Of a stretch of 9,386 nucleotides of DNA, positions 1-9,192 are shown in pieces (position 1 is the stretch's first letter; each line of letters starts with the position of its first letter). The stretch comes from a virus (lineage: Duplodnaviria > Heunggongvirae > Uroviricota > Caudoviricetes), in the IMG/VR virus record IMGVR_UViG_2706794695_000003. The stretch is one strand, 5' to 3'. The notes beneath the pieces were generated by a model. That model did no database searches. It was given only the letters and a program-made list of their open reading frames with translations, and was not told where the DNA came from. A program made the translations under genes and the position numbers.

Positions 1-20
1 AGAGCCTGTCCAATGTGCAT
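1..20 (-). CDS. Possible 5' end of the next head-module gene (partial, runs off the window)
   Basis: ATG at 20..18 on the minus strand directly after the T-run of the hairpin at 27..54; frame stays open to the window edge. Only 6 codons are visible and there is no clear Shine-Dalgarno, so identity and reality are unknown. Confidence 0.2.
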
Positions 21-54
21 AAAAAAATCCGGAAACAAGTGAGCGTTTCCGGAT
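21..54 (-). terminator. Intrinsic-terminator-like hairpin downstream of the portal gene
   Basis: Perfect 10-bp stem (27..36 atccggaaac pairs with 45..54 gtttccggat) with an 8-nt loop; on the minus strand it is followed by a run of 7 T (forward 21..27 is A-rich). Lies about 35 nt after the portal stop at 88..90. Confidence 0.5.
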
Positions 55-87
55 TCTTACACAGCCACTGGATCGGTCAACTGATCC

Positions 88-1335
88 TTAACTGATCGGC
101 ATTACACCACCGGGACGCGGATTCATATCTTCCAGGTCGCGGCAGTCATTGGAAGAGTAAATTCCCCAGTTGATCCCGGTGGCGTAGGCTTCAAAACGGG
201 ACTTCATATCCCCGCGCAGTAACGCCCCGGCGTTAAATTTGGCGTAATAAACGCCCTGCTTACTTTTTCGTACCAGTCCGGTGTTGATCCGCTGTTCGAT
301 GCGGGTCAGATACGGCACCAGTGAATAGTTGATAAATCCCAGCCCCAGCTCTTCGATATTGTTGAAGGTGGCGCGATCGGTGTTCTGCACCATGTGCAAC
401 GGCACCCGGAACAGACGACAGATTTCTTCCAGCTGAAACTTGCGGGTTTCCAGGAACTGACTGTCCTCGGCGTTCAGCGCCATCGACTTCCAGTCCAGCC
501 CCATTTCCAGAATCATCGGGCGGTGAGCATTGCCAAGCCCCGTGTGACACTCCTCAAAATCTTTCTTCAGACGCTCGTAAGCATCCGGCGTGAGCTTTTG
601 TTCCGTACGCAACACACCGGATGTCACCGCACCATTACTAAACAACCTGGCACCGTGCTCCTCGGTTGCCGCTGCCAGTGAAATGGCCTCACGCGCATAC
701 GCAATGGGATTCAGCCCGACAAGTCCATCCAGCGTCAGGGTGCGCACATGCCAGATTTCATTCTGGGTCAACACATCCACGGAACCATCCGGAAACGTCA
801 CCTGATAAACCGGCTGCCACTGGCTGTTCAGCTTCGGTTCCACACAGCCCGGATCTATCGGAAGAAGCTCCACCACTTCTCCCAGTGCCTTTACCTTGTA
901 GGCGTAAAAATTCCCCCGTAGACACAGGCAGACAATAACCAGCTCCCAGAATTCCTGCGGTGTCATGTAGCCATTAGGTTTTGCCGAAACCAACTTATGC
1001 AGTCGTTCATCCACCGCCCGTGTTTTCAGGGTACCGCTGATTTTGTAGAGACTGCAGGGCAGCATACCAACAGACTCTGCCAGCACCCTGACGCAAGAAT
1101 AGACCGCCGTCAGGCGCATGGCCCGCTGGCTACTGATCCGCTTTCCGGTATAGGTGTCGTATGACAGCCCGATAGCATCAGCAGTTCTGCTGGCGTGGTC
1201 ACCGGCACATCGCTTTTTCGTTGAAATAATCCCGAAAAGAACACTATTTACCTCCGCCGACAGACTGCCGTGTACGGTCGAGATATCGCGCCACCAGCCA
1301 CGACCAGAACAGGCACAGCGCCCCGGCAACAACAA
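88..1335 (-). CDS. Phage portal protein (HK97-family type); true start uncertain
   Basis: 415-codon ORF with a portal-like core (…[28 protein letters not shown]…) sitting immediately after the terminase large subunit and a small ORF. The track start at 1335 is TTG and overlaps the upstream small ORF by 92 nt; the only in-frame ATG is at 1119..1117 with no Shine-Dalgarno. Stop TAA at 90..88. Confidence 0.8.
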
Positions 1336-1426
1336 AACCCGCCGGGGGATAAATCAGCCAGGCACCATACGCCAGCAAAAGCGCACCCAGCACGCCCACC
1401 AGAGGCGCGAGAATCAGCATGATCAT
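1244..1426 (-). CDS. Small membrane protein, two predicted transmembrane helices (possibly the DUF1056-like ORF often found between terminase and portal)
   Basis: 60-aa ORF, ATG at 1426..1424 preceded by GAGGT 7 nt upstream; two hydrophobic stretches ([21 protein letters not shown] and [17 protein letters not shown]). Starts 11 nt after the terminase-large stop. Family assignment is from memory. Confidence 0.55.
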
Positions 1427-1437
1427 AATTACCTCAG

Positions 1438-3171
1438 TTAAAGCGAGCGGATCCCGTAGGACTCAATGTGGTCAGACAGCGTGTCTTCTTTCTCGTACAG
1501 CATGGCTCTGCCAACCGCCATAATCAGCGCAACTGCACCATCGATTTTGTTTTCCGCCTGCTCTTTGACGGGTTTCACCACATCATCGTTACCCGGCATG
1601 TTTTTGCCGACCACGTTGCCGATACACCAGGTCATGATGGGATTGCCGTCATGATGAAAACGTCCCGATTCAATCGCTGCTTCCAGCTCTTTCATCGGAT
1701 CGGACATATTGGTGAAGTTCTGGACGATAGTGACGGGATTCAGGTCTTCATCAGCAAGGTCATGTGACAACCCGGTCGCCCCGAAGGGGTCGATGGGTGA
1801 CTCACTGACCGGGCTGATTTTGTTCGCCGCTTTGGCCTCCTCGAGGATGTAGCGATAATCCACCTCCGCACCATCGGTAACGGTCAGAACGCCCATTTCC
1901 ACCCATTTCTGAAAGCGTTCGGCTGTCCGTCGATCTTCATTTTTCTCGACGCTGTACACCGTGTCATACGGTACCCAGAAACGCGGGGCCACACTGTAGT
2001 AATGCGTTTTACCGTCAATCTCGCGGGTATAAAGTCGCGCCATGCTGTTCATATCCAGCTTACGCGCCAGGTCAAAGGCCAGAATGCACGGCTGCCCCTC
2101 GAACTGCTCAAGGGTCAGTGATTTATCCTCGCAGCTCTGCCAGCTCACCAAGTTGAAATACGCCGAACGCGCCGACACCCAGATATTGAGGTGTTTTGTT
2201 TTAAAGACGTTTGCCAGACGGGCGTTATTTTTCGCACGCTGCTGCTGACTTAACAAAAATTCGCGATAAACCGACACGCCAATATTTGGATTGGCTTTTT
2301 CCAGCACCTGCGGGCCGGTCCAGTCGTCACCTTCATCAACGGTATAGATGATCCCGAACAGTTCATCGTTAGGCACCGAGCCGTTGAGCATCTCGATGAC
2401 TTCCCGCCGCTTGTCGTAGCACGGCCCCTCAATGTTGTACCCGGCGGTGGTGATGGCCCACATCAGTGGCTGACGTCGCGCCCCCATCCCGGTAAGCATT
2501 GTGGTATAAAGCGCATCGGTGGCATGCTCGTGATATTCATCAACCACGGCACAGTGGGGTGATGAACCATCACCTGGGTTGCCGATCAGCGGTTCAAACC
2601 GCGCGCCATCCTCCGGACGGTTCATGTTTGAGGCGTTAACCTCAATCCCGAACGCTTCCGTCAGCATGGGTGTGCGTTTACACATCAGTCGCGCCGGGCG
2701 AAAGACTTCCCACGCCTGTTTCTCTGTCGTGGCACCGGAATACACTTCCGCGCCAAACTCGTTATCACAGGCAAAACAATACAGGGCAACACCGGCAGAG
2801 ATTGCTGATTTGCCGTTCTTACGGGGGATTTCGGTGTACACCTCCCGGAAGCGGCGCAACCGGGTGCCTTTATTGACCCAGCCAAACGCACAGCAGATCA
2901 CAAATAGCTGCCACGGCTCCAGCGTGATGGGCATCCGTTTGAATGCCCACTCCCCCTTGGTGTGCGGCAACAGCTGAATAAATTTCGCGGCCCGTTCAGC
3001 CAGGTCCTTGTCGAAGCGGTAACGAAACGACTTACTTTTTTCCGCCATCAGGTCATCAAGATGGCGCTGGCAGGCCTGAATCACAAACTGGCAGGCAACA
3101 ATCTTTCCGCGCACGACATCCCGGGCATACTGATTTGCAGCATTTACGTTGGGGTAAGATTTCCGGCTCAT
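1438..3171 (-). CDS. terL: Terminase large subunit
   Basis: 577-aa ORF with a Walker-A-like motif (EIPRKNGKS) and a nuclease-like C-terminal half; ATG at 3171..3169 overlaps the stop of the upstream small-subunit gene (ATGA). Gene order HNH, terS, terL, portal is typical of HK97-like packaging modules. Confidence 0.92.
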
Positions 3172-3662
3172 GATTCGATAATTTTCAGAAACGGGTTAGT
3201 GGCTTTCTTCTGCCCCGCCAGGCCAATCAGACGCTGGCGGCTGCTGGGGTCGAGTCCGAGCATTGCCCCCGTGCTGCTCATCTCGGACTCCTGTTCTTTT
3301 TTGGCGGTCAGCTCCGGATTTTTGACCCTGCCGCCCATTGCACCGGTGATGGTGTTGCCCTGTATGGCAATATTTTTCACGGCACGTCGCCAGAACTCAT
3401 AGGCCACGCACCACCGCTCAAGTACCGCCAGGTCAGTCACGCACAGCAGGCCCTGACCGCAGAGTTCTTTGGTTGTCAGTTGCCACATGATCGTGGCGAG
3501 AGGGAGATCTTCTTCAGCGAACCACTCTGGTGGCTCAACACCTTTGATGGGCGTAAAAACAGGTTCATCTTTGTTCAGGGCTCGCTTGCCGGGGTTTCCG
3601 GCCAGCGCCTTGCGCGCCGTTGGCTTGGGGCGACGCCCGGAACGCCCCGCCGTTCCAGCCAT
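3168..3662 (-). CDS. terS: Terminase small subunit (P27-family-like)
   Basis: Basic, Gly/Pro-rich N-terminus ([29 protein letters not shown]…) typical of P27-type small subunits. The track start at 3671 is a GTG inside the Shine-Dalgarno; the real start is taken as ATG 3662..3660, with AGGAG 8 nt upstream. Stop TGA 3170..3168 overlaps the terL ATG. Confidence 0.8.
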
Positions 3663-3704
3663 ATGCGGCACTCCTGGTTAAATTTCATTTTTCGCGGGTA
3701 TAAA

Positions 3705-3783: not shown

Positions 3784-4134
3784 TCACCGGATTCGTTCGC
3801 GCGCTGTTTTCGCTTTATGGCAGGGCCAGCACAGACTCTGCAGGTTGCTGTCTGCGTCTGTTCCGCCATGCGCTTTCGGGATGATGTGGTCGACGGTTTT
3901 CGCCTCGCTCACCACACCGACACGCAGACACAACTGACACAGACCTTTATCGCGCTTCAGAATACGGGCACGAATCACCGTCCATTTTGAGCCATAGCCA
4001 CGCTGGTGGCGGCTCAGTCCGCGCTGGTGCTGCACCCAGCCTTCACCGCGATGTTTATCGCAGTAACCCGAACTGTCTGTGGTTGTACCTGCACATCCAC
4101 GCTTACGGCAGGCACGTGGGATTAGTGATGGCAT
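3784..4134 (-). CDS. Phage HNH endonuclease (terminase-associated)
   Basis: 116-aa ORF rich in Cys/His (…CDKHRGEGW…, …DHIIPKAHGG…NLQSLCWPCHKAKT…) with a zinc-binding HNH fold pattern; ATG 4134..4132 with GAGGT 4 nt upstream; directly upstream of terS as in HK97-like phages. Confidence 0.88.
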   Translation of the reverse strand: MPSLIPRACRKRGCAGTTTDSSGYCDKHRGEGWVQHQRGLSRHQRGYGSKWTVIRARILKRDKGLCQLCLRVGVVSEAKTVDHIIPKAHGGTDADSNLQSLCWPCHKAKTARERIR

Positions 4135-4176: not shown

Positions 4177-4425
4177 CTACTTAATGCACTGAGTGCGGAT
4201 ATACTCCTGTGCCCCTTCCAGTTGCATCTGCATCGTCATCAGCCGCTCTCTGAGGGTGAAATAATCCCGTTCAGCGGTGTCTGCCAGTCGGGGGCTGGTT
4301 GCATTATCCACGCCGGAGGCGGTGGTGGCTTCACGCACTGACTGACAGACTGCTTTGATGTGCAACCGACGACGACCAGCGGCAACATCAGCGCGCAGAG
4401 TTTCATTTTCAGCTTTCGCATCAGC
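4177..4425 (-). CDS. Rz: i-spanin Rz, C-terminal 82 codons (5' part lost in the N-masked gap)
   Basis: Visible translation ADAKAENETLRADVAAGRRRLHIKAVCQSVREATTASGVDNATSPRLADTAERDYFTLRERL… closely matches my recollection of the lambda Rz C-terminal half. The upstream end runs into the N-run at 4426. Confidence 0.85.
   Translation of the reverse strand, partial: ADAKAENETLRADVAAGRRRLHIKAVCQSVREATTASGVDNATSPRLADTAERDYFTLRERLMTMQMQLEGAQEYIRTQCIK
4239..4421 (-). CDS. Rz1: o-spanin Rz1 lipoprotein, embedded in the +1 frame of Rz
   Basis: 60-aa ORF MRKLKMKLCALMLPLVVVGCTSKQ…PPPPP… with a lipobox (VVGC) and a proline run; ATG at 4421..4419 lies just outside the N-run; wholly inside Rz in another frame, as in lambda. 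Confidence 0.8.
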   Translation of the reverse strand: MRKLKMKLCALMLPLVVVGCTSKQSVSQCVKPPPPPAWIMQPAPDWQTPLNGIISPSESG

Positions 4426-4700
4426 NNNNNNNNNNNNNNNNNNNNNNNNNNNNNNNNNNNNNNNNNNNNNNNNNNNNNNNNNNNNNNNNNNNNNNNNNNN
4501 NNNNNNNNNNNNNNNNNNNNNNNNNNNNNNNNNNNNNNNNNNNNNNNNNNNNNNNNNNNNNNNNNNNNNNNNNNNNNNNNNNNNNNNNNNNNNNNNNNNN
4601 NNNNNNNNNNNNNNNNNNNNNNNNNNNNNNNNNNNNNNNNNNNNNNNNNNNNNNNNNNNNNNNNNNNNNNNNNNNNNNNNNNNNNNNNNNNNNNNNNNNN
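4426..4700. other. N-masked gap (275 N)
   Basis: Run of n. Hides the body and 3' end of the endolysin gene and the 5' part of Rz. Confidence 1.
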
Positions 4701-4790
4701 ACCACCTGGGCCAGTGATTAACACAGATGCTATAGCAACAGCCCCACCACCAATAGCAGCTGCAACAGCCTTGCGTAATGATGGCGACAT
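4701..4790 (-). CDS. SAR endolysin (phage-21 R-type lysozyme), N-terminal 30 codons only; remainder masked
   Basis: ATG 4790..4788 overlaps the holin stop (TAATG). [30 protein letters not shown] is a Gly/Ala-rich weakly hydrophobic signal-anchor-release segment, matching my recollection of the phage 21 R N-terminus. Confidence 0.7.
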
Positions 4791-4963
4791 TATTCACCTC
4801 TCGCAGCCTTACGCTTGTCTTCTCTTATTTTGAAATACAGATTTGTCAGATAAGTCAGAAGCCCCAGAAGCAGACTTCCCAGCACACCAATCGCAGCCCA
4901 CTGTGATGGACTGACCTGATCCAACCACTGCAAAAACCAGTAGCCGGCACTGCCGGCGGAGGT
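4790..4963 (-). CDS. Pinholin (phage-21 S-type holin), C-terminal 57 codons; N-terminus masked
   Basis: Visible translation [57 protein letters not shown] has two transmembrane segments and a charged tail, matching my recollection of phage 21 S (about 68-71 aa); stop TAA 4792..4790. Confidence 0.8.
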
Positions 4964-5192
4964 NNNNNNNNNNNNNNNNNNNNNNNNNNNNNNNNNNNNN
5001 NNNNNNNNNNNNNNNNNNNNNNNNNNNNNNNNNNNNNNNNNNNNNNNNNNNNNNNNNNNNNNNNNNNNNNNNNNNNNNNNNNNNNNNNNNNNNNNNNNNN
5101 NNNNNNNNNNNNNNNNNNNNNNNNNNNNNNNNNNNNNNNNNNNNNNNNNNNNNNNNNNNNNNNNNNNNNNNNNNNNNNNNNNNNNNNNNNNN
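4964..5192. other. N-masked gap (229 N)
   Basis: Run of n. Hides the holin start and whatever lies between the tRNA cluster and the holin. Confidence 1.
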
Positions 5193-5255
5193 GAGTCAGA
5201 CATTCCCACACAATATTGTGTCAGTGCAAATAACAACCTTCGTCTCAAATCTCGC

Positions 5256-5330
<75 letters not shown>

Positions 5331-5333
5331 ATA

Positions 5334-5409
<76 letters not shown>

Positions 5410-5411
5410 GC

Positions 5412-5488
5412 TGGCCCACCACCGAGGACTCGAACCTCGCACCGTCAACTTAGAAGGTTGATGCTCTATCCGGATGAGCTAGTGGTGG
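5412..5488 (-). tRNA. tRNA-Arg (anticodon UCU)
   Basis: 77-nt cloverleaf: acceptor CCACCAC/GTGGTGG (unusual C1-G72), D-stem GCTC/GAGC, anticodon stem TCAAC/GTTGA, loop CTTCTAA, T-arm CGAGG-TTCGAGT-CCTCG, CCA encoded. Confidence 0.75.
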
Positions 5489-5489
5489 T

Positions 5490-5566
5490 TGGTGGCCCTT
5501 GCTGGACTTGAACCAGCGACCTGGCGATTATGAGTCGCTCGCTCTGACCAACTGAGCTAAAGGGCC
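5490..5566 (-). tRNA. tRNA with anticodon CAU; likely Ile2 (lysidine, ileX/ileZ-like) rather than Met
   Basis: 77-nt cloverleaf: acceptor GGCCCTT/AAGGGCC, D-arm GCTC-AGTTGGTCA-GAGC, anticodon loop CTCATAA, T-arm GCTGG-TTCAAGT-CCAGC, CCA encoded. Overall close to my recollection of E. coli ileX. Confidence 0.75.
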
Positions 5567-7804: not shown

Positions 7805-9192
7805 AAGAAACGCTCCATCTTACTGCTGTCGGTACGTGTATTGCTGTATCTGCGCGGCTGGGGCTGCCGCATTGGGGTGGAAAGAACCTGTGCGCTTTCC
7901 TGGTCCACAGGCAGAAAATGTCCGTTATAAAAACGCCGGTAAATCGTCCCCAGAGAACCGTTACGTTGTTTCGTGATATTAATTTCTGCTATGCCTGTAG
8001 CCTGTGTATCCGGGTTGTACACTTCATCCCTGTAAAGCATCAGAATGATGTCTGCATCCGCCTCTATTTCTCCGGAATTTTTCAGGTCTGAGTTCATGGG
8101 ACGTTTATTGGGTCTGGACTCCACACCGCGGGAGAGCTGGCTCAGCGCAATCAACGGAAAACCACCGGATTTTGCCAGGCCTTTAAGCCCCTTTGAGATT
8201 TCACCCACGGCAAGGTCATGACGCCCCGTGGTTCGGGTTTTTATCAGCCCGAGATAATCAACCACCACCAGCGCCGTTTCCGGATGTTTAATCAGATGGT
8301 GTTTCGTTGTTGCGCATATCTCATCAATGGTCAGGTTCGCCTGGTCCACCATCCAGATATTGCGCCCGGTCATCCGCCCCACCCCTTGTGAGAAACGCGC
8401 CCAGTCTTCATCTTCAAAGTGAGCCACAGATTTCAGGCGTGATACTGGCATCCCTCCAGCCGCAGACACCATACGTTCACCAATCTGGATGTTCGCCATC
8501 TCCATGGTGAACAGAAGCACACCATGCCCCTGCTCAGTCACCTTGTCGATGATGTCCAGCGCAAGTTCGGTTTTCCCCATCGAAGGACGGGCGGCAATGA
8601 ATACCAGGTCTCCGGGCTCCATACCGCCTGTTTTTGCGTCCAGTTCATCAATACCGGTCATCAACGTCCTGGATTTCTCCAGCCCCTGATTCCGGCATTC
8701 AACACGCTCAACCACTTCCGGAAGCACATCATCAATATGTACCGGCTGAATGACGCCCTTTCCTGTCGACAGTGTGACCATCATGTTCTGCGCATCCTTC
8801 AGGGCATCTTCAGCTGCTTCACAGGTATGCGCATCACGTAATTTCTGCAGCGCCTCATTCAGTGTTTTTTCTGCATCGCGCAGTGCGGCATTGCGCCGCA
8901 ACGCTGCAACATAGTGCTCCAGTGAAGACTTCACCCAGGTTTTACGCCCGGTATCAGTAATCACCGGGGCAAGTTCCGGCATCTCATTACACAACAGCAC
9001 GGGGTCAATCACTCCTGAAACACGGGCCTGTCTGCAGATGCCTGTGTAGATATCCCGATACGCTCGTACAGAAAAAATGTCCGCCGGTAGTGTGATCAGA
9101 ATATCCATCACTTCATGATCTGCCCCACGCAGAAAGAATGCGCCAATGACAGCGCCTTCCAGGTCATCATTACGCCAGACTGGTGTTGTCAT
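7801..9192 (-). CDS. Replicative DNA helicase, DnaB family (phage-encoded)
   Basis: ATG 9192..9190 with GAGGT 8 nt upstream, giving 463 aa (the track ORF extends to 9333 through an unlikely N-terminal extension). Walker A ARPSMGKTELALDI, DnaB-like N-domain and RecA-like C-domain motifs; stop TGA 7803..7801. Confidence 0.9.
   Translation of the reverse strand: MTTPVWRNDDLEGAVIGAFFLRGADHEVMDILITLPADIFSVRAYRDIYTGICRQARVSGVIDPVLLCNEMPELAPVITDTGRKTWVKSSLEHYVAALRRNAALRDAEKTLNEALQKLRDAHTCEAAEDALKDAQNMMVTLSTGKGVIQPVHIDDVLPEVVERVECRNQGLEKSRTLMTGIDELDAKTGGMEPGDLVFIAARPSMGKTELALDIIDKVTEQGHGVLLFTMEMANIQIGERMVSAAGGMPVSRLKSVAHFEDEDWARFSQGVGRMTGRNIWMVDQANLTIDEICATTKHHLIKHPETALVVVDYLGLIKTRTTGRHDLAVGEISKGLKGLAKSGGFPLIALSQLSRGVESRPNKRPMNSDLKNSGEIEADADIILMLYRDEVYNPDTQATGIAEINITKQRNGSLGTIYRRFYNGHFLPVDQESAQVLSTPMRQPQPRRYSNTRTDSSKMERFF

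Follow-up and report, generated by a model that had tools for sequence, protein, structure and literature searches.

The portal gene of this DNA is almost certainly an ordinary pseudogene, frameshifted in its 21st codon and cut short by the insertion sequence IS4, within a phiP27-like prophage remnant of the Shigella sonnei chromosome. The first-pass annotation of the window (the whole stretch of 9,386 nucleotides analysed here) had concluded that the portal gene has no credible start codon where one is expected, and had offered three ways out: a TTG inside the upstream gene, a late ATG at 1119, or a one-nucleotide indel, the last being either a sequencing error or an inactivating mutation in a decaying prophage. 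What looked like a missing start codon follows from the frameshift in this pseudogene and does not point to an unusual initiation mechanism. Homology to intact portals begins at a GTG, changes frame at a one-base deletion and ends at an IS4 terminus, and this arrangement is present in all sampled S. sonnei assemblies. The features on which the argument rests, together with the neighbouring genes, are collected in the table below.

Table. Features of the portal locus and of the remainder of the window (positions of the window)
Feature	Position	Strand	Remarks
IS4 left end	1..104	-	Terminal repeat TAATGCCGATCAGTTAAGG at 104..86; matches annotated IS4 in E. coli
Portal codons 22-380 and first base of codon 381	105..1182	-	Neighbouring frame; essentially the whole Phage_portal domain
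Premature TGA	1110..1112	-	Stops GTG-initiated translation after 44 codons
ATG, equivalent to Met-43 of the intact portal	1117..1119	-	Automated start of a 343-aa product; upstream sequence CGGATCAGTAGCCAGCGGGCC, without Shine-Dalgarno
One-nucleotide deletion site	1182..1183	-	Window GAA CT- GCT GAT; relatives GAG CTG GCG GAK
Portal codons 1-20 and first two bases of Leu codon 21	1183..1244	-	GTG frame
Ancestral portal start codon GTG	1242..1244	-	Homologous GTG begins the portal CDS in intact relatives
ymfR-like small membrane protein gene	1244..1426	-	60 aa; ORF, hydrophobic N-terminal two thirds, homologue annotations
Shine-Dalgarno GGAGG	1251..1255	-	6-nt spacer (TAAATA) to GTG
TTG inside ymfR	1330..1332	-	Here the CP000038 annotation begins a product of 414 aa (locus L009, gene 7840-9084, equivalent to window 1332..88)
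Terminase large subunit gene	1438..3171	-	577 aa, intact, immediately upstream of the ymfR-like gene; Pfam TerL_ATPase and TerL_nuclease
P27-family small terminase gene	3671..3168	-	
HNH endonuclease gene	3784..4134	-	116 aa; immediately upstream of the small terminase gene
Four-tRNA cluster (Met-CAT, Arg-TCT, Thr-TGT, Gly-TCC)	5256..5566	-	

Since the portal genes of relatives begin at the homologous GTG, the expected start is both present and well signalled in the window. A megablast search of positions 1500..900 against complete E. coli genomes returned 1392 records with a query coverage of at least 80%, and the matches listed carry the annotation “terminase large subunit”, “YmfR” and “phage portal protein”. 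In E. coli A36 and UPEC129 (95.8% and 89.7% identical to the query), the portal CDS comprises 1242 nt and 413 aa and starts at the homologous GTG. This codon overlaps the ymfR stop by one nucleotide in A36, UPEC129, phiP27 (gene L38) and the K-12 prophage e14 (beeE); the SfIV portal starts at the same GTG, in a record without an annotated upstream ymfR gene. The TAG of the small membrane ORF at 1246..1244 and the GTG at 1244..1242 had been placed correctly in the first-pass annotation, and the one-nucleotide overlap that they form (TAGTG) suggests translational coupling of the ymfR-like gene and the portal gene. The GGAGG, which had been put at 1257..1253 and eight nucleotides from the GTG, actually lies at 1255..1251, with a spacer of six. 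The Shine-Dalgarno block, GGCGGAGGTAAATAGTGTTCTTTTCGGG, is shared without change by the E. coli homologues (L001, L002) and every S. sonnei locus, and K-12 e14 has it as well. The idea that a credible start is lacking is a little off the mark: ribosome-binding site and GTG 1244 are in place, but they have been cut off from the rest of the coding sequence. Homologues of the upstream gene are annotated as “protein YmfR” in E. coli or as “membrane protein” (L37) in phiP27; Pfam and NCBIfam profile searches assigned no family to its 60-aa product, nor to the 44-aa peptide read from the GTG.

The disconnection is caused by a change of reading frame. As described previously, the GTG frame closes after about 44 codons, at TGA 1112..1110, and the long portal-frame ORF (1335..88, minus strand) runs in the neighbouring frame, where TTG codons at 1335, 1332 and 1329 are followed by no ATG, GTG or TTG between 1326 and 1120, the next candidate being ATG 1119. 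When an intact portal was used as a tblastn query, residues 1-21 aligned at window 1244..1182 in the GTG frame and the remainder, up to residue 380, in the neighbouring frame. The frame-by-frame alignment to portals that had been proposed as a check therefore reveals a clean jump, and continuous homology was found neither from a TTG at 1335..1329 nor from the methionine at 1119. Identities were also counted in each frame: before the deletion, the GTG frame shares 20/21 residues with an intact homologue and the long-ORF frame 2-3/21, whereas after it the long-ORF frame shares 351/359 residues with the E. coli A36 portal and the GTG frame 1/23. The same counts indicate that the portal-frame tblastn segment, which seemingly begins at residue 5, does so by over-extension of the alignment only.

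The one-nucleotide indel among the earlier alternatives is hence the one borne out, as an inactivating mutation in a decaying prophage: a single base is absent between 1183 and 1182. With respect to all five references (DNA alignments and the K-12 sequence) it is the third position of Leu codon 21, and its absence is the sole gap in 1377 nt aligned to phiP27. The deletion probably arose through loss of a G from CTG-GC. Because one base has been lost from this codon, ribosomes starting at the GTG would halt after 44 codons.

A sequencing or assembly error, leaving the 5' end truly intact and the absent base an artefact of the window's own assembly, was the other form that the indel explanation had taken. 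That assembly is indeed gapped, N runs standing in place of 620 and 659 nt of Ss046, but the deleted base lies outside any homopolymer run (context CT|GC) and, above all, the 31-nt frameshift site occurs without a mismatch in 20/20 S. sonnei loci from 18 different assemblies. These assemblies include several multi-megabase records, CP000038 among them, and three short draft contigs that represent 7, 15 and 20 or more samples. An identical deletion in 20 loci of 18 assemblies indicates a fixed mutation rather than a sequencing error, for which the chance is vanishingly small. Exact-protein matches to the large terminase subunit also include complete chromosomes, such as CP000038, which we take to be that of S. 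sonnei Ss046 (accession and species name co-occur in 28 papers); apart from two N runs, it matches the window at 100% identity. Furthermore, the portal/IS4 junction is exact in all 17 of the S. sonnei loci long enough to span it, and 1695 blocks of the assembly collection list the 343-aa product together with the tail that IS4 encodes. Both lesions therefore appear to be fixed in the sampled sequenced S. sonnei genomes. The 31-nt site had no exact match among the GTDB species-representative genomes, and S. sonnei presumably lacks a separate species representative there. Among complete E. coli genomes the closest copy is 95.8% identical, and no shift was found in the copies examined.

Restoration of one base in codon 21 yields a portal protein that scores above the curated cut-offs of its family. 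The repaired product matches PF04860 (Phage_portal) with E=2.6e-107 and 359 bits (cut-off 39.1 bits) over residues 47-373 and profile positions 2-321 of 321, and TIGR01537 (portal_HK97) with E=2.5e-78 and 263.6 bits (cut-off 112 bits) over profile positions 3-343 of 343. It aligns in a single piece, over residues 1-380, to 15/15 top phage records, with amino acid identities of 97.1% to phiP27 and 91% to SfIV, SfI and ST64B. An intact homologue matches the solved HK97-type portal 8CEZ, presumably the HK97 portal structure itself, with E=1.2e-53 and aligns to its residues 31-405. The strong profile matches are thus shared with HK97-family portals (PF04860, TIGR01537), whereas the window holds no full-length member and no single intact ORF from start to stop; the frame jump after codon 21 and the replacement of codons 381-413 by IS4 identify a pseudogene derived from this family.

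Initiation at a TTG inside ymfR (1335, 1332 or 1329), giving a portal of 414-416 aa with a novel N-terminus, is allowed by a portal frame that is open from TTG 1335, and it has been adopted in the CP000038 annotation, where a 414-aa product begins at TTG 1332. Nevertheless, the sequence upstream of these codons, CCCCCGGCGGGTT, contains no Shine-Dalgarno; such a start would add about 50 residues without portal similarity (2-3/21, as against 20/21 in the GTG frame), and no intact relative has an N-terminal extension of this type, all being 413 aa from the GTG. The product would still be without the portal C-terminus and the partner head genes. A TTG start is accordingly most improbable, and the annotated start at TTG 1332 was rejected as an annotation artefact, given the missing Shine-Dalgarno and the 2-3/21 portal identity upstream of the deletion.

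A late start at ATG 1119, giving a portal of 343 aa that is shortened at either end yet still serves some function, such as interference with related superinfecting phages, fares little better and is judged very unlikely. Starting at the equivalent of Met-43, the product would keep most of the Pfam domain (residues 47-373 of the repaired protein), and gene callers have chosen this codon in many assemblies. However, it has no upstream Shine-Dalgarno and is simply the conserved internal methionine of the portal family (QRAMRLTAV); the C-terminal 33 residues are exchanged for the IS4-derived VMPIS, and no selection on it is evident, the copies in S. sonnei all being identical because the species is clonal. 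Low-level translation of the truncated product from this codon is conceivable. It is barely credible that a portal fragment is made, either as 343 aa from ATG 1119 or at near full length through rare -1 slippage, and has been retained as a domesticated dominant-negative defence; if this were true, the fragment would poison portal-ring assembly of superinfecting phiP27-, SfI- or SfIV-like phages. Neither the TTG nor the late ATG that had been proposed is the ancestral start, since the alignment to homologues begins at the GTG.

The frame might also be restored by programmed -1 ribosomal frameshifting or transcriptional slippage, as a -1 shift anywhere in 1244..1112 would fuse the two frames and an A5 run is located at 1218..1214. 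Yet the GTG frame from 1244 to 1110 contains no X XXY YYZ heptamer and only T4 and A5 runs, and the A5 run, which intact relatives share, would not be long enough to cause slippage efficiently. Programmed frameshifts are conserved among relatives; here, the shift is absent from phiP27, SfIV, the E. coli prophages, e14 and the 15 phage records examined, and the two-frame arrangement is private to one clonal lineage. Recoding of this kind consequently deserves almost no credence.

The second lesion, the truncation by IS4 at window 104, had been overlooked in the first-pass annotation. Portal homology ends at window 105, that is, at residue 380 of 413, and codons 381-413 are replaced by the IS4-encoded residues VMPIS and a TAA (90..88). 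The conserved C-terminal P-GGDV motif of HK97-family portals sits exactly at the cut. In E. coli, sequences matching window 1..~120 carry the label “IS4-like element IS4 family transposase”, and a hairpin followed by a T-run is located inside the IS4 end (52..~20, minus strand). The complete element in one S. sonnei locus (L006) measures 1426 bp, has inverted ends TAATGCCGATCAG... and ...CTGACTGGCATTA and encodes a 442-aa product with Nterm_IS4 and DDE_Tnp_1 domains; it thereby shows the length of about 1.4 kb, the imperfect terminal inverted repeats and the IS4-type DDE transposase by which IS4 is recognised. Some E. coli IS4 matches run about 15-20 nt beyond the terminus into the portal-derived flank at roughly 95% identity overall, which may reflect target-site preference or chance.

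No target-site duplication was found flanking IS4, the left flank being ...CCCGGTGGTG and the right flank CAGCCCTTGAGC (raiA side) or GCTCATTGAGCA (bamE side); the junction is therefore attributed to an IS4-associated deletion or rearrangement rather than to a simple insertion. Beyond IS4 lie chromosomal genes (bamE-recN or raiA-pheA). Protease, capsid and tail genes are absent downstream of the portal at the locus, whereas the E. coli prophages and phiP27 have prohead protease and capsid genes there. Out of the head module (terS, terL, portal, prohead protease, major capsid), only the upstream half with HNH, terS, terL and ymfR persists in order. The right flank of IS4 varies by strain, with raiA-pheL-pheA-tyrA or bamE-recN as the alternatives (loci L006, L007 and L018 as against L003, L009 and L013), and this variability indicates that IS4 has mediated inversions or other rearrangements here that distinguish S. 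sonnei strains. Apart from its flanks, most S. sonnei genomes have IS4 itself interrupted at its position 1123, where an element of about 1.33 kb is lodged (about 10191..11520 in L009); in L006, L007 and L018 it is uninterrupted. The interrupting element has two products, HTH_Tnp_1 (121 aa) and rve (301 aa), and is on that account assigned to the IS3 family; by size it looks like IS2.

Taken together, two lesions mark the gene. The original initiation signals, namely GGAGG, the six-nucleotide spacer and a GTG overlapping the stop of the ymfR-like gene, are kept. Loss of the base in Leu codon 21 (1183/1182) has stranded 359 homologous codons with no start of their own, and codons 381-413 and everything downstream are missing from the locus, where IS4 now adjoins codon 380; the missing part may have been deleted or, by an inversion, moved next to another IS4 copy. 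The portal has probably lost its function as a consequence.

The Pfam domains given for TerL in the table are those listed for an identical product, and its homologues are annotated as “terminase large subunit”; the pairing of an HNH endonuclease with terminase is typical of HK97-like cos packaging modules. In some assemblies (L016, L020, L021 and L022, in the region homologous to window 1438..3671), terS, terL or both are called as fragments, of 127+37 aa for terS and of 194+341 aa or 498 aa for terL; either these strains have decayed further or long-read sequencing introduced false indels. The tightly packed tRNA genes are flanked on one side by the lysis cassette and on the other by an ORF6N gene, itself preceded by the antiterminator gene Q; in lambdoid and Stx-type phages, too, tRNA genes are found at this place. 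The N runs at 4426..4700 (275 nt) and 4964..5192 (229 nt) take the place of the lysis genes (holin, lysozyme and Rz) and of noncoding DNA upstream of them; they replace 620 and 659 nt of Ss046 and imply that the window comes from a gapped or scaffolded assembly. ORFs crossing these runs (for example, 4790..5248, 4239..4790 and 4177..4797) were discarded as artefacts.

Comparison with the relatives places the S. sonnei locus among decayed members of one prophage family. The Stx2e-converting phage phiP27, whose portal L38 (NP_543090.1) shares 93.9% DNA identity over 1377 nt, has the gene order terS, terL, 60-aa membrane protein (L37) and portal in common with the window, as well as the same GTG start and one-nucleotide stop/start overlap. 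In phiP27, however, an uninterrupted 413-aa portal ORF is followed by head genes, whereas the window lacks one base of codon 21 as well as codons 381-413, and IS4 occupies the place of the head genes. Among named genes, the nearest counterpart is beeE in the cryptic K-12 prophage e14, a defective prophage of the same family with the same ymfR-TAGTG-portal junction and a likewise decayed portal. The manner of decay is different: beeE has an intact 5' frame (CTG GCG), but a deletion or a fusion with jayE has left it only about 140 homologous residues, whereas the S. sonnei portal keeps 380 codons, is frameshifted at codon 21 and is capped by IS4.

IS4 is one of the five insertion sequences (IS1, IS2, IS4, IS600 and IS911) that have expanded in all Shigella species, a proliferation that plays a part in the loss of functional genes and in the degradation of the genome (Hawkey et al., 2020; PMC7373316). 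The portal gene abutted and truncated by IS4 is a typical instance of such IS-driven pseudogenisation, with no difference from the pattern described (PMC7373316). As a further case of IS-associated prophage decay in S. sonnei, the portal pseudogene raises no new biological question. Its practical value is one of annotation: public records for the locus give 414 aa from a TTG in ymfR, 343 aa from an internal ATG, or no call, and should be corrected to a portal pseudogene with a frameshift at codon 21 and a 3' end cut off by IS4. Moreover, as the lesion is fixed in S. sonnei, it could serve as a marker of this lineage.
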